This document shows positions 4,025 to 44,648 of a stretch of 64,000 nucleotides of DNA, in pieces. The notes under the pieces were generated by a model. The model was not told the DNA's origin. It did not search any database and saw only the letters and a list, made by a program, of their open reading frames with translations. Every line of letters begins with the position of its first letter. The stretch's first letter is position 1. The stretch lies in the NCBI RefSeq assembly GCF_964188315.1, contig NC_135671.1:4154001-4218000 (forward strand), written 5' to 3'. The DNA is from Podarcis muralis (taxonomy: Eukaryota). The position numbers and the translations under genes are program-made.

Positions 4025-4130
4025 ATCTGAAGTGTATCTGAAGAAGTGTGCATGCACACGAAAGCTCATACCAAGAACTAACTTAGTTGGTCTTTAAGGT
4101 GCTACTGGAAGGAATTTTTTTGTTTTGACT
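4025..4130 (+). mobile_element. Penelope-like element terminal fragment
   Basis: ctgaagaagtgtgcatgcacacgaaagctcatac..ttagttggtctttaaggtgctact is a vertebrate PLE-type terminus. Paralogous to 20574-20680. Confidence 0.75.
4034..4071 (+). ncRNA. Minimal type I hammerhead ribozyme motif (Penelope-associated)
   Basis: GTAT-CTGAAGA-A-GTGTGCATGCACAC-GAA-AGCT-C-ATAC: stem I GTAT/ATAC, core CUGANGA..GAAA, palindromic stem II, self-complementary AGCT stem III, predicted cut after C4067. Confidence 0.75.
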
Positions 4131-8784: not shown

Positions 8785-9284
8785 TATATTCCTTAGCCAT
8801 TCTCTGTTATCTACCTGCAAACATTGTAACAAACAATAGGTCTATGAAAGTAAACTTCAACATTCTACCTAGTTAGACTGGTTTTAGCAGATCCCACATT
8901 TAAAATTACAGGACTGTAAACTGTCCCAGAAGATTATCTCCTACTTCAGGCAGAAGATTCTCGCCAGAAAGGCTGGATCCTCTATTTTAAGCTTATTTCG
9001 TCTCTGTTCATTCCCATTTCAATGCTGCTTGCTCTTTCTGAGGCACATAACATACAGGTGAATCGACCATTCATGGACAGACTGCAGTCATTAAGAAAAA
9101 AACAGCACCTTCAGAGTTCTGATTAACCATATACCAGCCACCTCACAATGCTGTGTAAATAACGGGGAGGAGGTTAATATGGATATCTGAAAGTAAAGCA
9201 CAGAACTAAGAAGGAACCCATATTGGTACAAAACTTGCTTTTCAGTTTTGACATGGAAGTGCACTCATTCATAGAATACTTCAT

Positions 9285-20099: not shown

Positions 20100-20482
20100 T
20101 AATGGCAATTAAGACTATCCACCACTAGCAGGCTTTCACAGGAAACAGACAAGAGACCAGACTTTTCTTTCTTTCTTTTTGATAATAATTTTAATTAGTT
20201 TTCAATTATAGTCCATTATAACAATGCCAACTTATAATACTATTACTAGTACCAATCATTCAAATACCAAATTATACAATTTAGGTGCCCCCCCGCATGC
20301 TAGAATTGATGGTATGATGATTTTATTTATTTCTGCCTTCCAAAATGTTATTAATTTCAATTGCATTCCACTCAAAATAATAATGCAACAGCTGCAGTAT
20401 TAATTATTTCTATTCATGTTGATACATTAAAAGATTTATGAATCTACAAGTGAGGCACTCAAACTATATCCTTGTTCTTCCT

Positions 20483-20711
20483 CAAAACAAAAAAAATTCC
20501 TTCCAGTAGCACCTTAAAGACCAACTAAGTTAGTTCTTGGTATGAGCTTTCGTGTGCATGCACGCTTCTTCAGATCTGAAGTGTATCTGAAGAAGTGTGC
20601 ATGCACATGAAAGCTCATACCAAGAACTAACTTAGTTGGTCTTTAAGGTGCTACTGGAAGGAATTTTTTTTGTTTTGACTATGGCAGACCAACACGGCTA
20701 CCCATCTGTAA
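20483..20711. mobile_element. Penelope-like insertion with inverted termini
   Basis: Inverted arms of ~92 bp (20483-20574 vs ~20586-20677); 12-bp TSD CTTGTTCTTCCT (20471-20482, 20712-20723). Confidence 0.8.
20583..20620 (+). ncRNA. Minimal hammerhead ribozyme motif (second copy)
   Basis: GTAT-CTGAAGA-A-GTGTGCATGCACAT-GAAAGCTC-ATAC; stem II closes with a G-U pair instead of G-C. Confidence 0.65.
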
Positions 20712-22091: not shown

Positions 22092-22135
22092 TTCATTCAT
22101 TCATTCATTCATTCATTCATTCATTCATTCATTCA
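22092..22135. repeat. (TTCA)n microsatellite just 3' of the copy 5 stop codon
   Basis: 11 TTCA units; shorter versions follow copies 1, 4 and 6. Confidence 0.9.
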
Positions 22136-22144
22136 ATGCTTCAT

Positions 22145-23064
22145 TCAGCATCTTAGTTGATGTAACATCCTTACTGATTCCTGTTTCAATTTGGGACTCA
22201 TGAAGATCAGGATAAGAGCATGACCAGAGGAATATGCAGCAATCACATTTAAAAAAACGAAATGCACTCCAATGTCGTTAATGCCCATCCGAAACAAAAC
22301 TGTTGACAAAATTTCCACAAAAATGTTAGATACATAGAGAATGGAGAAAGAAGCCAGAGCTTTGATGGCATTCAGGTGAGCTTCTATTCTGACATCCCTC
22401 GCACTGTTTTGTAGAAGATTTTTGTGCCTCCACAGAGAAGTTAGTAATAAAATGGATGAGAACAAAAATATCGCGAAGGGAAAGAAATCTGGAACAACAG
22501 AAGGATAAGAAACTCACAGGAATTGGATGTGTTAATTCCTGAGTCATTATTATTGTTTAGATATGATTCAAATGGATTACATTTAGAAAAAATGTTATTG
22601 CCTGTTAATGCCACAGTGGTGGTGATTGCAGAGAAGACCACTGTCCCCAGAAGCAGCCAAGGCACCAGCCCAGGGAATCTCTGCTTCATTTGCAGGAAGA
22701 GAGGGTGGGAGAAGTTAGCGATTTTTACACAGTACAAGACACTGAGCCAAGCGGCAAACCAAAGGCTGGCCGTATTAAGAAATAACCAGAAGGAATCATA
22801 TGCAATTTTTATCTTCAGCATCAGAAAAGGGTCCACCAAAAAGAGGTTGAATATTGCAGCCTGCATCATAACGGCATGAAATGCAAATCTGAACAAGCCA
22901 AGCAAACTCAGGATCATGTCAGCTGAGGATAGTTTTCGGCTTCTAAAACAGTCAATGCAGTTCACGATAGCAATGAATCCATTTCCCACCATTCCTGTGA
23001 GGGTTTCAATCACCAGAAGAACGAAGCCAAACAATTCAAATAAGTTAAGCATCTTTCTGAGCAT
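22145..23064 (-). pseudogene. TAS2R: Bitter taste receptor, copy 5, frameshifted
   Basis: Relative to paralogs (ctt cta tat gtt gtt cca gat), 4 nt are missing between 22498 and 22499. This gives a 207-aa truncated product; the downstream frame stays open to the normal stop. Confidence 0.88.
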
Positions 23065-24291
23065 GAAATAGAAGCGTTTCTTTTAGTGCAATGTGTAATA
23101 TTAGCACAGGCTGATGCTGATGCTGCCCTTTATATAACCAGTAGAGAACAGAATACTTCTGCCTTCTTTCCAGAATTGAGGAACTTGCAGGGAGAGGAGC
23201 GAGCTATTTTCATTTGTTGATTCTGTTCGGATGCAAATAACATCTGGAAAGATTCCATTACTAAATCTATATCATATATTCTGCTGTCATATTCGCAAAT
23301 TCGACAGTGGTGCTAAATATCATCTTTGCATCTGGCTGGACAAACAGTGATACATGATTCTTTTAGGATTTGTTTATCTTGATTAATGTTTGTTCACCAG
23401 TATGATTATTTTTAATCCATCTGAAAACAGAGATGTCTATCAAATGATTTCATAAATTTATTGTCTTTGTGAGGGACGTGGTTCTAATTGCTCAAAGAAA
23501 TAAAGCAAGGTGTTTAATTGTGCAGGCCAATAGAAGAAATTTTATTAGAATTGATTCATTGTTCTTGCACCTCTTTAAGCAATCAATGGATTTCATACTC
23601 AGGTTATCGACCACATAAGAGACACCCAGCAGGGCTGCCCTCTGTGGCCATTGCTGTTTGCATTGTTCGTGGAGGTACTAGGCATCCAACTATACAAAGA
23701 CGCCTTCTATAGAGGGTGTCATTGTGCAGGATGAGGTACACAAAGTGAGTATGTTGGCAGATGACACCCTTTCATCTTTGCAAAATCCAATAACAGCCTT
23801 TAGGCACCTAAGCGGCAGTTAGAAATGTATCATAGGGTAGCAGGATTGCCAATCAACTACTCTAAATCTGTGATCCTTCCTATCAATTTAGAAGCACTAC
23901 AAGAGGCTGGTTACTAGCTAACTCTCCACTTGCCATAACTCACGGAGAATTTAAGTAGTTAGGTATTAACTTCACTGCAGATACGGCTTCCAGTTCTGGC
24001 TGCCTTAATGGAGACAGCCCCCATGACAATGAGATTAGATTATAGATATGGTTTACAAATTTTAAAAAAGAAACTGTTGTTGGCTCTGCTATTCGAATCT
24101 CAGCTGTCTTTGGCACAGAAAATCAATAACAGTCAGAGATAGATGTCCATACCGGAGGAAGAGCCAGATACTTAGACGAGCTGCGAGTGATGTGTGTTCC
24201 TGCCAGTCCCTGGTTTTCAGGTACAATATCTGTATATTCCTTAGTCATTATCTGCTATCTACCTGATTCATTCATTCATTCAATGCTTCAT

Positions 24292-37797: not shown

Positions 37798-38712
37798 TCA
37801 GCATTTTAGTTGATGTAGCATCTTGACTGATTCCTGTTTCAGTTTGGGATTAATGATGATCAGGATAATGGCATGGCCAGAGGAATATGCAACAACCACA
37901 TTAGTAAGAAAAAGGTGCATCCCAATGCCTTGCATGCCATTCCAAGAGAAGAGCACTGCCATTCTTTCCACAAAAAAGCTAGATACATAGAGAATGGAGA
38001 AAGAAGCCAGAGCTTTGATGGCATTCAGGTGAACTTCTGTGCTTACATCCCTTGCACTGTTTTGTAGAAGATTTTTGTGCCTCCACAGAGAAGCTAGTAG
38101 TAAGATGGATGAGAACAAAAATATAATGAAGGGAAAGAACTCTGGAACAACATATAGAAGGATGGAATGCTTACAAAAGTCAGATGTCTTCATTTCTGAG
38201 TCAGTGTTATTGCTTAGAAGTGATTCAAATGTCTTGCATTCAGACATGAGTCTAATGGTCATTATTGCCTTGATGGTGGTAGTGATTGCAGAGAAGACCA
38301 CAGTCCCCAGAAGCAGCCAAGGCAACAGCCCAGGGAATCTCCGCTTCATTTGCAGGAAGAGAGGGTGGGAGAAATTGGCAATCTTTACACAGTACAAAAT
38401 ACTGAGCAAAGCGGCAAACCAAAGGTTAGCAGTATTAACAAATGTCCATGAGGCACTGTATGCAATTTGTACGCTCCTCATCTGAAAAATATCTCTGAAA
38501 AAAAGGAGAAGAATTGCATTCTGTATACCAATTGCATGAAATGCAAATCTGAACGAGCCAAGACAACTCAGGATCATGTCGGCTGGGGATAGTTTTCTGC
38601 TGCTAAACCAGTCAATGAAGTTAATGATAGCAATAAATCCATTCCCCACCATTCCTATGAGGGTTTCAATAACCAGAAGAATGAAGCCAAACAATTCTAA
38701 GAAGGTAGACAT
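37798..38712 (-). CDS. TAS2R: Bitter taste receptor, copy 8 (304 aa)
   Basis: Intact 7TM ORF from ATG 38712 (MSTFLELF); the longer ORF-track start is not ATG. Confidence 0.95.
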   Translation of the reverse strand: MSTFLELFGFILLVIETLIGMVGNGFIAIINFIDWFSSRKLSPADMILSCLGSFRFAFHAIGIQNAILLLFFRDIFQMRSVQIAYSASWTFVNTANLWFAALLSILYCVKIANFSHPLFLQMKRRFPGLLPWLLLGTVVFSAITTTIKAIMTIRLMSECKTFESLLSNNTDSEMKTSDFCKHSILLYVVPEFFPFIIFLFSSILLLASLWRHKNLLQNSARDVSTEVHLNAIKALASFSILYVSSFFVERMAVLFSWNGMQGIGMHLFLTNVVVAYSSGHAIILIIINPKLKQESVKMLHQLKC

Positions 38713-39056
38713 CCTTCTGAGCCCGAAGTAAAAGTGTTTCTTCCAGTGTAATATTAGCACAATCTGCTGCTTATGCTGCCTTGTATATGCGCAGTGGAGA
38801 GCAGAATACGTCTGCCTTCTTTCAAGACCAGAACAATTTGCAGGGAGAGGACCGAGCTATTTTCAGTTCTTGATTTTACTCAGATGCAAATCACACATGG
38901 AAAAATTCTAATCCTAAATCTATATCATATTTTCTGCTGTCATATTTGCAAATTCGACAGTGGTGCTAAATATCCTCTCTGCATCTGGCTTAACAAACAA
39001 TGATAGATGATTCTATTATGATTTCTATATTTTGATTATTGTTTGTTCACCACTAT

Positions 39057-40138
39057 TTAACATCTCAAGATTGTCCTCCTCAATATTGGATTCAGAGCAC
39101 CACCCACATGTGTAACAGCCTGCTCCAGCCAGCCAACATGGCAGCTGCCCTTCACTCCCCACCTGGAGTTCTCCCCACTTCCTGATTCTTCTTCCCAGAA
39201 ACCCCTGCTCTCAAAACCTCTCTTGTAAGACCCCTCTTCCTGTGGTGACATCTTACCCTGGTAACCTCCCTCTGTGCCTGGTAGAGCCTTCTGTCTGGTT
39301 GATGCCTTCCCTTGAGGGACTAATGGCTGACATCAGCTGCATTGTTTCTTCAATGTCCCACCATCACCAGGCTGGCCCCATGAGAAAGATAGCCAGTGTT
39401 ATTCCTTGCTTAGTCCAGGAATCCATGAACACTGACTGTGCTGGTCCCGTGGGTTACCCGAGAGGCGAGGTCCAAGTCCGGTCCATGGTCAAAGGTGCAA
39501 CGTGGAGGCAGTCCGTAGTAGCTGAAGCTGGGTGCAGGGCAGGGAGCTAGGTGAAGTCAGGAACAGGCTTGCAAGCAGGGAGCAAGGGTGGGTCAGCAGC
39601 TCAGGCAGGAAAGCAGGACAGGGTTCAGGCAGGAACTAGTAACCAACAGTGTTGCTCCCACAACTTGGAACTGGGGCTGGCCGGCTTTTATCTGCCCTGA
39701 GGCATAGGACGGCCCCAATCCTCTGGTGAGTCGCCTCTCCTGACCTGGAGGCGAGCACTCCTCCTGCGGGAACTTAGTTCCCTCCAACTCTCTGCCCTGA
39801 GCCTCTACAGCTCAGTAGAGGCTGGAGGGTTACCGGACCCAGAGGCAACCTCCTCTTCCTCTGACGGGGCTGAGAGTGGAGCAACTGCAGGCAATGGGTC
39901 CTCCATCACCTCAGGAGCCAGAACAGACTCAGCTGGTGCCTGCACCTGAGGATCCAGCACAGGTGAGGACCCTTCAGGCTCAGGCTCAGGCCCCAGCCCC
40001 AGCTCAGCTGGATCTGGAGGCGGGGAATCCTGTGCAGGCTGGGATCCCTCAGGTTCAGCATCCGAGTCTGAATCCCAGGCCATCACACCGACCCTTCACT
40101 GAATGTAGAGATTATGAGGAGCCCCCCCATTTATAACA
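39057..40138. mobile_element. Older LTR-like element (paralogs 48544-49008, 50683-51120), here interrupted by a younger LTR
   Basis: TGTTA..TAACA termini in the 50683 copy; similar right flanks in all three copies. Confidence 0.5.
39437..40087 (-). mobile_element. Solo LTR (651 bp) carrying a U3 reading frame
   Basis: TG..CA termini; 5-bp TSD CTGAC/CCGAC; the empty site is seen in the paralogs at ~48950 and ~51060. Confidence 0.88.
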
Positions 40139-40511
40139 TTATTTTAAAACTTCATTTTTTAATAAAGAATTTCCTTAAAACTACCAACCTAACCTCAAGG
40201 GCATACCCAGCAGAATGGCATACCCTGCAGAATGACACAATGGGTCAAGGGAAGCAATGGGTGAGTGCATCTGGCTGTTAGCCAGAAGGCTGGTGGTTCG
40301 AACCCACCCAGGGACAGCTGTGGCCAAGATGAGCTTCGGGGTCCCTTCCAACTCTACAATTCTAGGATTCTAGGATTCTATGTCTGCAAGGCCTTGGCAG
40401 TCATGTGCAGCAGAACTTCTGCTAAACTGTGTCCTCAGCACATGTGTGCACCTGCACACCCACAGGCAGGCAATATAGTTCTTGCAAAAGTGTTGGCAAA
40501 ATTGGTAGCCT

Positions 40512-41444
40512 TTAAGATAGTGGCTTCATCCAGCATTTTAGTTGACGTAGCATCTTGAGTGATTCGTGTTTCAGTTTGGGATTAAGGAAGATGAGGATAA
40601 TGGCATGGCCAGAGGAATATGCAACAACCACATTAGTAAACAAAAATTCCATCCCAATGTCTTGCATGCCCGTCCAAAACGAGAACATTGCCAATGTTTC
40701 CACAAAAAAGCTAGATACGTAGAGAATGGAGAAAGAAGCCAGAGCTCTGATGGCATTCAGGTGAGCTTCTGTGCTGACATCCCTTGCAGTGCTTTGTAGA
40801 AGATTTTTGTGCCTCCAGAGAGAAGTCAGTAGTAAGATGGAAGAGATCAAAAATATCATGAAGGGAAAGAAATCTGGAACAACATATAGAAGCATGGAAT
40901 GCTTACAAAAGTCATATGTCTTCATTCCTGAGTCAGTGTTATTGCGTAGAAGTGATTCAAATGTCTTGCATTCAGACATGAGTCTAATGGTCATTATTGC
41001 CTCGATGGTGGTAGTGATTGCAGAGAAGACCACTGTCCCCAGGAGCAGCCAAGGCACCAGCCCAGGGAATCTCCGCTTCATTTGCAGGAAGAGAGGGTGG
41101 GAGAAGTTTGCAATTTTTACACAGTACAAAACACTGAGCAAAGCGGCAAACCAAAGGTTAGCAGTGTTAACAAATGTCCATGATGCACTGTTTGCAATAT
41201 ATACGTTCCTCATCAGAAATTTATCTATGAAAAAGTGAAGAAGAATTTCATTCTGTATCCCAATTGCATGAAATGCAAATCTGAACAAGCTAAGACAACT
41301 CAGGATCATGTCAGCTGGGGATAGTTTTCTGCTGCTAAACCAGTCAGTGAAGTTAATGATAGCAATAAATCCATTTCCCACCATTCCTATGAGGGTTTCA
41401 ATAACCAGAAGAACGAAGCCAAACCATTGAAATAAGGTAGACAT
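40512..41444 (-). CDS. TAS2R: Bitter taste receptor, copy 9 (310 aa; apparent chimera of copy 8 and copy 10 types)
   Basis: Intact 7TM ORF from ATG 41444; C-terminus ..LKCWMKPLS. Confidence 0.95.
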   Translation of the reverse strand: MSTLFQWFGFVLLVIETLIGMVGNGFIAIINFTDWFSSRKLSPADMILSCLSLFRFAFHAIGIQNEILLHFFIDKFLMRNVYIANSASWTFVNTANLWFAALLSVLYCVKIANFSHPLFLQMKRRFPGLVPWLLLGTVVFSAITTTIEAIMTIRLMSECKTFESLLRNNTDSGMKTYDFCKHSMLLYVVPDFFPFMIFLISSILLLTSLWRHKNLLQSTARDVSTEAHLNAIRALASFSILYVSSFFVETLAMFSFWTGMQDIGMEFLFTNVVVAYSSGHAIILIFLNPKLKHESLKMLRQLKCWMKPLS

Positions 41445-42483
41445 CCTTCTGAGACCGAAGTACAAGTGTTTTCTCAAGGTAATGGGTAATATTAGCACAG
41501 TCTGCTACTTATGCTGCCTTTTATATGAGCAGTGAAGAGCAGAATACTTTGCCTTCTTTCGAGACCAGAACAATTTGCAGGGAGAGGAACGAGCTATATT
41601 CAGTTGCTGATTTTGCTCAGATGCAAATCACACATGGAAAGATTCTCTTCCTAAATCTATATCATATTATCTGCTGTCATATTTGCAAATTCAACAGTGG
41701 TCCTAATATCCTCTTTGCATCTGGCTTAACAAAGAATGATAGATGATTCTTTTACCATTTCTATATTTTGATTAATGTTTGTTCACCAGTATTTTTATTT
41801 TTAATCCATCTGAAAACAGAGATGTTTATCAAATGATTTAATAAAATTTATTGTGTCTGTGAGGGAAATTGTTCTAATTGGTTAAAGAGATAAAGCAGGG
41901 TGTTTAATTATGTAGGCCAATAGGTGAAATATTTAGAGTAGTATATTTTCTTTAAAAAGTGGAAACCAGAGGAATTAAGAACAAGGAAGCTGTGCAATGG
42001 TATGTGCCAATATGGACTTTTTCTGTGGTTTATTTCTGTAGATCATGACGCCAATAAAGTGAGATGGTGATGAGAGCAACATTTGGTGGAAAACTCAGAA
42101 TGCGTCTGACCAAACACCGGATAGATCCGCTTTGAGGACCTATTCTGTGGTAGTGAGTGAAGAAAAATCTTTTTTCTCTGCCTCCATTGCGTCAGGAACA
42201 AGGAGTCATCCCTGAAGGTCACTGGATCCACCTATCACGGATTTATAACAGTTGGCCTTGACACCAGACTTTTGGGTGGGGTGGAGAGGTTTAAAGGAGA
42301 AAAATAAAATGGTTTGATGTGAATGAATTTTGGACTAGGGGGAGTTGAGGGTTTAGTTATTTTGTTTATTTGTTAAGCAGGGAATTTGAGTATCGCTTTG
42401 TTTATTATTAGAGTTTTTTAATATAAATGATATATGAAATGTTAATGTATAATATTATTCCCCCCATTTTCCTCCCTATAGTA

Positions 42484-42487
42484 GTGT

Positions 42488-42531
<44 letters not shown>
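42484..42531. repeat. (TG)n microsatellite
   Basis: About 24 TG units with one interruption. Confidence 0.95.
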
Positions 42532-42532
<1 letters not shown>

Positions 42533-42914
42533 GCTGTACGTCACTTGGAGACCTTTGGATGAGAAGTGACTAATGTTTAATAAATGAATGAAATGAATTA
42601 ATGCTTCGAGTGGTCAGGGGCCTTTTAACCTCTGGCCCACATGAGGAGAATTTAGACTAAACGATGGCCCATGGTGAACAATTTGCTCAGCGCTTCACTG
42701 TCAGAATCACTAAGATCTGTTCTGACTTAGACACTATTGTGGAGATTATGTTTAATGTCACACTAAATGCTATATTTTAGTAGTATTGTATTCAAGAATG
42801 TAGGCAGTATTTTCCCAGATGGCTGGTGTTTGTCCACTCAAGGCTGTGGCACGCTACCTTGTTTTATGTCTGGATCACGAGTTAAATCACAAGGCAGTGA
42901 TGAGAGAAGCTATA

Positions 42915-43523
42915 TGTGATGGCCTGGGATTCAGACTCGGAGGCTGAACCTGAGGAATCCCAGCCTGCACAGGATTCCCCGCCTCCAGAACCAGCTGAGC
43001 CGGGGCTGGGGCTTGAGCCTGAAGGGTCCTCACCTGTGCTGGATCCTCAGGTGCAGGCATCAGCTGAGTCTGCTCTGGCTCCGGAGGTGATGGAGGACCC
43101 ATTGCCTGCAGGTGGCTCCACTCTCAGCCCCGTCAGGGGAAGCTGAGGTTGCCTCTGGGTCTGGTAACCCTCCAGCCTCTCCTGAGCTGCAGAGGCTCAG
43201 GGCAGAGAGGCGGAGGGAACTAGGTTCTCTTAGGAGGAGTGCTTGCCTTAAGGCCAGGAGAGGCGAGTCACCTGTGGGCCAGGACTGCCCTAGGCCCCAG
43301 AGGAGATAAAGGCCAGTCAGCCCAGTCCCAGGTTGCGGGAGCAACATTGTTGGTTGTCTGTTCCTGCCTGCACCCTGTCCTGCTTTTCTGCTTGAGCTCC
43401 TGACCTCACCTGACTGCCTGCCTTGGACCCCGCTTCAGCTTTGATGGACTGCCTCCATACCGCACCCTTGACCTCAGAATGGACTCGGACCTCGCTTCAT
43501 GGTTAACCCATGGGACCAGCATA
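42915..43523 (+). mobile_element. Solo LTR (609 bp), same family as 39437-40087
   Basis: Starts TGTGATGG, ends CCAGCATA; perfect 5-bp TSD CTATA. Confidence 0.88.
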
Positions 43524-44648
43524 CTATATGTCTTTGCTAGTGTTTTATATACAGATGAAGCTGCTTGCATCACACAGACACACATAGAATGCCGTGTGGT
43601 GCTTGGTCATTGAATGTTGGCTGGTATGCGGAAAGAGGAAGAGGGAGAAATAATATTTTGATTTTATTTTTAGTTGGAAAGCTACTTTTTAGTAAAAGAG
43701 GTTTAAAGGCTCACACTGGCACCAGAGTGAGGCAGTTTGTGAGACAGAAACCAATATCTTTTGTAATGTAAACATTTAATACTAAGTCCTGCAAGTAAAG
43801 CCTTATAATTACTTGTGTTAAAGAAGTTTGATTTCTGCGCAAGAGTCAGATCAGAGATCTTCTACTGGCACTATAACTAATAGCAATAGTTGATACAGAT
43901 CCACCGGATGTAGCTTGGGTCTCTGCTTGTCCAGTGCTAATGGATACTTTCCAATGCGGTAGGATCACTGGAATTGTGAGATCTACTACACGTGTGCCAG
44001 ATCCTTGCCCTTTATGACTCATTGAAAGGGCCAGCAGGGGATTGGCTGAGTGGGTGAAGGGAGTGGTCAATGCTTCCTCCCTCTCCACCCCAATAGAGTT
44101 TATTAAAGCCTAAAAGAAAATATACAAAAAATAATATCAAATATATTTTATGGTGCAAAAAGATAAAAGAAACTAAGATAAATAAATACAAATACAAAGG
44201 GGGGAAAAGAGGAAAGAGGGGGAAGGGAGGGCTTCAAAATAATAGAATCATAGAAGGAACTCTGGATAGATCTACACTCATAGTGTGTTATTAAAATGTG
44301 ACGCCAGAGTGCAAGCCACCAACAAGGGGAAACTGCCATTGAACCTTACAGAACGTTCAATTTAATAATGTTTAGAAGATCAATGTAGATCCACCCTCTG
44401 TCAACTATAGTTTAATTTTTTAAAAAACCTTTGCTCCAAGGCAACACCAAACTATTCTACTTTATATAAACGAGTATTTTCTTCACTCCTCAAGCCCAAA
44501 TGTGATAAGTTCCTTTTCCATGCAAAAAGTCCACAGAGCGTTTCCAATCGTTAATCAATATCAGCAATGATTTTTCTCTAGTTAAACATGTTAACTTTGC
44601 CATCTCAGCCAAGTCCAGGAATTTCAGCAGCCGTTCCTCTGTAGAATG

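Follow-up and report, generated by a model that had tools for sequence, protein, structure and literature searches.

The window analyzed here is a stretch of 64,000 nucleotides from the lizard Podarcis muralis (contig NC_135671.1, positions 4,154,001 to 4,218,000). It contains two solo long terminal repeats (LTRs), designated as copies A and B, with a reading frame in the U3 region. This LTR frame is the C-terminal tail of Pol, that is, of the integrase, and follows the chromodomain and the polypurine tract (PPT). By its domain order and a self-priming signature, the element is assigned to the Tf1/sushi type of Ty3/Gypsy chromoviruses. The tail carries the motif RRSARL, which resembles the nucleosome-binding core of HMGN proteins. 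The evidence leans towards this motif being an arginine anchor on the acidic patch of histones H2A-H2B, placed beside a chromodomain of the methyl-lysine-binding type.

The LTR start was found behind a purine (G-rich) tract at 221 genomic matches, compared with 0 for the control. At 15 of 15 loci, the LTR frame continues a frame that is open for 387–504 codons upstream, as a rule through the integrase and the chromodomain. The Pol-derived frame ends 337–355 nt inside the 3′ LTR in 19 of 20 stretches, and the LTR pairs are 99.4–100% identical in 18 of the 20. Among 68 distinct junctions, the frame is kept in 58 and shifted by one base in 10; in those of the latter that were examined, the difference sits in the G-run before the PPT. 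An earlier reading made from the letters alone (the sequence-only reading) had described the frame as a separate U3 accessory protein, similar to Nef and Sag, and had asked whether it continues from an internal open reading frame. It does, from Pol. Since the Pol frame is continuous through the integrase, the chromodomain, and the PPT into U3, the supposed U3 protein is the C-terminal tail of the integrase, and a separate protein is very unlikely.

The domain order was determined with Pfam in young elements belonging to sister subfamilies of the window copies: Gag, protease (PR), reverse transcriptase (RT), RNase H, integrase (IN), SH3, and Chromo, followed by the tail. The chromodomain (PF00385, E-value 3e-15) is located after SH3_Tf2-1, and its alignment to HP1 proteins, obtained by a PDB search, indicates that the three aromatic cage residues Y/W/Y are kept. 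The PDB search returned matches to chromodomains only. A UniRef protein of Podarcis muralis corresponds to the chromodomain plus the tail at 98%; the tail is thus already in databases, unremarked. When other families with such a tail were sought in this genome, two host chromodomain genes came up, and the remaining loci examined all belonged to this family. Young members show two layouts of their coding region, gag followed by a frame-shifted pol (307 + 1270 codons) in L066 and L067, and a fused frame (1560–1644 codons) in L068, L069, and L072, all on C1 and C2. Both layouts have been spreading recently, as near-identical LTR pairs are seen in each.

The features of Ty3/Gypsy elements are present: Gag and then PR-RT-RNase H-IN between two LTRs, and a chromodomain at the integrase's C-terminal end. 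The TG...CA ends, the PPT before the 3′ LTR, and a short target-site duplication are all found. At its start, the leader behind the 5′ LTR is unlike a site for a tRNA primer. In five of six young elements, the primer-binding site (PBS) includes 10 nt complementary to a site 30–31 nt past the GATAAA box of the LTR, and 9 nt are complementary in the sixth. A complement of 10 nt was reached by 16 of 2000 shuffles. In four old-type loci, a complement of 7 nt was seen in one and was unrecovered in three. In self-priming elements, the PBS is reported to pair with the 5′ end of their own transcript (PMC4600332), and the complementarity of the PBS to the LTR just past a TATA-like box is shared with the Tf1/sushi group as described there. 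The order Gag-PR-RT-RNase H-IN-chromodomain, the type I chromodomain, reported to be defined by three aromatic residues (PMC3059260, PMC3605345), and the 5-bp duplications are also common to Tf1/sushi chromoviruses such as MAGGY, Tf1, and sushi. Unlike these, the lizard element has a selected U3-coded tail of 110–129 residues ending in an HMGN-like motif.

The features of the two window copies are as follows.

39437..40087, minus strand: copy A, a solo LTR (TG...CA, 651 bp) of an older subfamily, flanked by CTGAC (39432-39436) and CCGAC (40088-40092)
42915..43523, plus strand: copy B, a solo LTR (609 bp, ends decayed to ...CATA), flanked by CTATA at 42910-42914 and 43524-43528
39688..40083, minus strand: integrase-tail frame of copy A, an acidic, Pro-rich linker and then a basic block; stop at 39805-39807
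42919..43309, plus strand: integrase-tail frame of copy B; frame change near 43112
39748..39765, minus strand: RRSARL codons (HMGN-like motif) of copy A, 3′ of the internal stop
43232..43249, plus strand: decayed motif RRSACL of copy B; the arginine codon is a CpG site
39652..39692, minus strand: GATAAA of copy A (LTR nt 396) and the predicted self-priming site/transcript 5′ end 31 nt on
43305..43344, plus strand: GATAAA of copy B (LTR nt 391) and the predicted self-priming site (LTR nt 421)

Copies A and B show 90% mean column identity and start with TGTGATGG, in which the ATG is at LTR nt 5. Their TG...CA-type ends and their different 5-bp target-site duplications (exact CTATA/CTATA for copy B, CTGAC/CCGAC for copy A) indicate that they are independent solo LTRs. 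The frame of copy A runs to a TAA stop inside the GATAAA box and is homologous to the last 110–129 Pol codons of full-length elements. The positions and the MAWD-type start given by the sequence-only reading were recovered as solo LTRs, together with the breaks it listed, namely the stop at 39805-39807 in A, the frame change around 43112 in B, and an indel of 6 nt by which the two differ. The RRSARL motif that it named is spelled by copy A only; copy B reads RRSACL. Both copies are decayed relics and would make no functional protein.

Other copies in the genome retain the frame. The LTR search gave 3039 first-look candidates, of which 40 were scored, and a 129-codon frame is open in 23 of the 30 best genomic matches. 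An open frame of 128–130 codons is present in 47 of 84 window-type copies, 26 of these 47 with RRSARL. Thus, the open consensus to a TAA in the TATA-like box, which had been proposed by combining A and B, exists in natural copies that keep the whole frame without reconstruction. The ends were located in 69 of the 84 copies (unlocated in 15), and 5-bp duplications were recognized among these 69 as 46 exact and 16 one-mismatch pairs.

The tails of the young sister subfamilies have 110–116 codons. The end of the window-type LTR joins the same leader and gag/pol at eight of eight loci, with DNA about 80–86% identical. A search for the window-type LTR start behind the PPT with three tight patterns gave no genome match. 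A search with old-type internal DNA led to the locus L362, where the integrase, the chromodomain, and the same tract are immediately followed by an LTR with 88% identity to copy B. This sole directly window-type junction is itself a point against the read-through: the copy is decayed, its integrase is broken, and its phase is lost in the G-run. In L365, 84% identical to copy B, a 129-codon tail and the chromodomain share one open frame. The read-through in the exact window subfamily is thus deduced from near relatives plus a single broken copy.

The position of the frame relative to the transcript bears on whether it could be expressed alone. The transcription start is predicted at LTR nt 421–427, 3′ of the stop at nt 393–400. 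If so, the whole frame belongs to U3 and would be present in the element RNA only at the 3′ end, in line with pol, and the LTR promoter would not express the frame by itself. Three raw RNA runs labeled with a related species provided 199, 181, and 64 reads, a low depth. Coverage of gag-pol was thin, with nearly all reads of the two bulk runs on one strand (sense under the usual library convention). Coverage was higher in the LTR than in gag-pol, and U3 was covered on both strands about equally. Neither joints nor peaks of starts or ends appeared in these three low-depth runs, a depth that leaves room for rare spliced RNA. Splicing into the frame was likewise absent from these three runs.

A separate accessory protein starting from the ATG at LTR nt 5, produced from a spliced RNA, from solo LTRs in host transcripts, or by cleavage of Pol, is accordingly very unlikely. 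The ATG/Met does recur at this place in Podarcis, Anolis, Rhineura, Salvator, Naja, and further elements, but it lies inside the conserved LTR terminus, and Pol runs on into the frame without a break. From varied flanks, host RNA reads pass into LTR starts (loose ends at 8907), and three Podarcis gene models start at the LTR Met; these host reads cover both U3 strands about equally, and the solo copies have evolved neutrally (dN/dS 0.95, below). The predicted transcription start 3′ of the stop and the lack of RNA joints at low depth also speak against it.

Selection was analyzed as the ratio of nonsynonymous to synonymous change (dN/dS) in an alignment of 77 distinct natural copies with open frames in four groups (47 old, 9 intermediate, and 12 + 9 young), the differences being classed column by column. 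Across six subfamily pairs, dN/dS is 0.39–0.59 in the Pol frame and 0.17–0.31 in the 31-codon basic block. Fisher tests gave p-values of 0.0003–0.015 for the four whole-frame pairs tested and of 0.01 and 0.05 for the block, the pairs being non-independent. The other two sense frames show 0.96–5.5 and contain stop columns; the Pol frame has no stop column, whereas each other frame has 1–14. The antisense frame that shares third positions with the Pol frame gave 0.35–0.56, as expected from the shared positions, with a stop column and without a link to Pol. The synonymous excess between subfamilies, suggested by the sequence-only reading as a check, is therefore present (0.39–0.59) and frame-specific.

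Inside the old subfamily, the pattern is different. Private changes of the old copies are neutral with dN/dS 0.95, and shared variants did not differ from private ones (0.70 vs. 0.95, p 0.6), so selection is demonstrated between subfamilies and not inside the old one. CpG sites are six times as variable (0.155 vs. 0.025) in old copies, and the second arginine of the motif, a CpG codon, is lost in 16 of the 47 open-frame old copies. Selection acted on the replicating lineage, not on the solo LTRs.

Functionless, tolerated read-through, with the frame open by chance and U3 constrained at the DNA level, is most improbable. In its favor, Pol commonly passes the PPT in this clade, with varied tails. 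Between L066 and L069, synonymous divergence in the chromodomain and tail is 0.21, about half of that in the Pol core (0.36–0.54). The low value implies that the U3 DNA was itself constrained or was recombined between subfamilies. Against this explanation stand the frame-specific synonymous excess and the absence of stop columns in the Pol frame, compared with 1–14 in each other frame. Indels point in the same direction: 10 were counted in the coding part, none of 1–2 nt, versus 128 past the stop (nine non-independent pairs of chosen open-frame copies). The motif also recurs across hosts.

Proteins from Rhineura, Salvator, Naja, Anolis, and Crotalus in the databases combine a chromodomain with a G-x-V-M-like junction and an acidic tail. 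The Anolis protein ends with RRSARIAAKQLAD, in which the motif stretch is RRSARIAA. Two further database elements end with RRSARLAAAH and RRSARIAARV and have dissimilar linkers. In total, RRSAR[LI] was found in three of 81 non-Podarcis Gypsy-type tails, 4–7 residues before the C-terminus. The four motif-bearing elements are divergent; their chromodomain cores share only 14–23 of 36 residues, and their linkers range from about 6 to 100 residues. In P0150, which was matched on the chromodomain only, the motif stands nearly alone. Many database gene models are spliced or shortened, and two Podarcis models themselves lose the motif.

Three models, P0016 and P0038 from Podarcis muralis and P0058, start at the LTR Met and continue into gag or unrelated sequence. 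These are probably prediction artefacts, and P0058 could contain an LTR-derived first exon. In many metagenome chromoviruses (loci L268-L341), PRRSS[AV][HR] immediately precedes the PPT, and reading continues into the LTR; this is a different basic motif in a place similar to that of RRSAR[LI].

The R-R-S-x-R spacing and the following hydrophobic residue of the lizard motif are as in HMGN, Dsup, and Dot5. RRSAR of HMGN2 and RRSSR of Dsup are reported from cryo-EM to bind the H2A-H2B acidic patch via arginine anchors (PMC12487698). Nucleosome binding by Dot5, with RRSARIAT, is reported to depend on the acidic patch and the arginines (PMC13347269), and an arginine anchor on the same patch is described for foamy-virus Gag (PMC11054761). 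The chromodomain of MAGGY is reported to read H3K9 methylation and to be able to redirect integration (PMC4600332).

In the proposed mechanism, the tail would be translated with Pol and stay on the mature integrase, and the acidic, Pro-rich linker of 80–100 residues would serve as a flexible tether. The motif may then dock on the acidic patch as R23 and R26 of HMGN2 do. Together with the type I chromodomain, a predicted reader of methylated H3, the tail anchor would let the integration complex grip chromatin by two means. General chromatin retention is a more likely role for the anchor than site choice. The chances are judged even that vertebrate chromoviruses of sushi type have such a two-grip integrase, combining a methyl-H3 chromodomain with an LTR-coded HMGN-type anchor, that it was kept or re-invented in several lineages (Podarcis, Anolis, and two other hosts), and that it retains the integration complex on chromatin like foamy-virus Gag. 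The chromatin-binding motif claimed by the sequence-only reading partly stands: the frame is selected, RRSARL is conserved, and binding is plausible, while the carrier is an integrase tail.

Several observations weigh against the anchor. Nucleosome binding by the lizard tail is a candidate activity proposed from motif likeness; the HMGN core RRSARLSA is matched at seven of eight residues, and Pfam returned nothing at all for the tail. Constraint on the tail is much weaker than on the Pol core: in a comparison of two young natural copies, dN/dS is 0.04–0.05 in the Pol core, 0.13 in the chromodomain, 0.38 in the tail, and 0.17 in the block. In a shuffle test of the three in 81 tails, a single hit arose in 33 of 5000 shuffles and two hits never did; this significance is overstated, since P0174, and perhaps P0166, was found by a profile containing the motif. 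For the non-Podarcis proteins, the LTR boundary is inferred from the alignment. The Crotalus tails have QRSM[RK]HL, and the Rhineura tail is basic-ended without the motif. Chromodomain tails from metagenomes, 72 distinct ones taken from 80 of the 269 confirmed stretches and one viral locus, all lack RRSAR[LI], and many of them extend beyond the tract into the LTR. Apart from these points, a scan of viral contigs gave one unrelated locus, and the ESM Atlas gave no usable match. Prediction of a complex of H2A, H2B, and the 33-residue basic block returned a score of 0.03, which speaks neither for nor against the anchor.

The Arg-rich block also fits a nuclear localization signal (NLS) or a DNA-binding tail. 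With the same integrase-tail anatomy, the block could be an NLS or a tail for non-specific binding of DNA or RNA, and the HMGN likeness incidental; this is considered rather unlikely. The selected block has 31 codons and many arginines and is longer than the six-residue motif, a basic end lacking the exact motif is seen in Crotalus and Rhineura, and a C-terminal NLS has been reported on the Ty1 integrase. The Ser-Ala-Arg-Leu/Ile spacing is needless for an NLS, yet it is the same in four divergent elements, and in P0150 the motif stands with little else around it. These two facts speak against the NLS reading.

The RRSAR core, the same arginine spacing, and a low-complexity chain are common to the lizard tail and HMGN, Dsup, and Dot5. 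RRSARL[QK]A of Podarcis shares seven of eight residues with RRSARLSA of HMGN, as does RRSARIAA of Anolis with RRSARIAT of Dot5. Membership of the HMGN family was ruled out, as there is no Pfam match to the HMG14/17 domain, the motif is C-terminal, and the tail is a part of Pol.

Coding sequence that overlaps U3 is known from nef of HIV/SIV and sag of MMTV, which encode separate proteins from RNAs of their own. The U3 overlap is common to all of them, but the lizard U3 frame is the end of Pol. A Pol frame running into the 3′ LTR is described for plant CRM elements and some other plant chromoviruses (PMC3059260, PMC3605345), and the lizard element shares it with CRM group A. In CRM elements, a basic CR motif is reported to replace the chromodomain and proposed to bind CENH3, and a RARAK motif is proposed to bind histones (PMC11302176). 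Group A, with the CR motif instead of a chromodomain, is linked in these sources to centromeres and CENH3; unlike this group, the lizard element belongs to a vertebrate and has its type I chromodomain intact ahead of the tail, and its young copies are distributed along chromosome arms. In foamy viruses (from a structure of the prototype virus, PFV) and presumably in MLV p12, an arginine anchor is reported to tether the integration complex to the acidic patch (PMC11054761). These anchors are Gag-derived, whereas the candidate anchor of the lizard element is on the integrase and LTR-coded.

In the open literature, searched by titles and the starts of abstracts and without Repbase or Dfam, no publication on an HMGN-like anchor on a retrotransposon integrase was found, and the family may already have a name in Dfam or Repbase. 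A real anchor would make this the first retrotransposon integrase with one of HMGN-like type, and solo LTRs in their thousands would have spread a ready-made nucleosome-binding exon through lizard genomes. If the tail binds, the arginine-anchor strategy would extend from retroviral Gag to the Gypsy integrase, a parallel to the CR motif that plant centromeric elements encode in their LTR. For the little-understood way in which vertebrate LTR retrotransposons stay on chromatin and select sites, the six-residue motif, with proven counterparts in HMGN2, Dsup, and Dot5, is a directly testable candidate; it adjoins a chromodomain, and the family includes very young copies. In this family, U3 is simultaneously a promoter region and a selected coding sequence. 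For annotation, the case is a warning that a solo LTR may carry the last part of Pol as a frame that is open and selected.

Bitter-taste receptor genes form a cluster in the window, with 12 TAS2R-like repeats across 5950-61200. Eleven of the 12 coincide with open frames of 317–357 codons, and one was confirmed with Pfam. The repeat near 22100-23100 has no open frame of at least 230 codons. The gene between the two LTRs is outside the element.

40512..41504, minus strand: TAS2R bitter-taste receptor gene between copies A and B (PF05296, E-value 3e-70)

Copy A stands some 600 bp upstream of a same-strand TAS2R gene (37798-38856), and its predicted start is directed towards this gene; it could act as an alternative promoter of it. 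An inverted repeat at 20482-20678 has 94 bp, 98% perfect, and a loop of 9 nt, and one arm is found again at 4036-4126.

On C1, 36 of 51 matches to old-type LTRs lie within 20 Mb of a chromosome end, a zone that makes up 29% of the length of C1 (hand count). Young elements appear to be more evenly distributed along chromosomes than old-type LTRs. For the older subfamilies, most surviving decayed internal regions are on C20 or in duplicated blocks near the beginning of C4 (C4:2-7 Mb), as expected for low-recombination regions.

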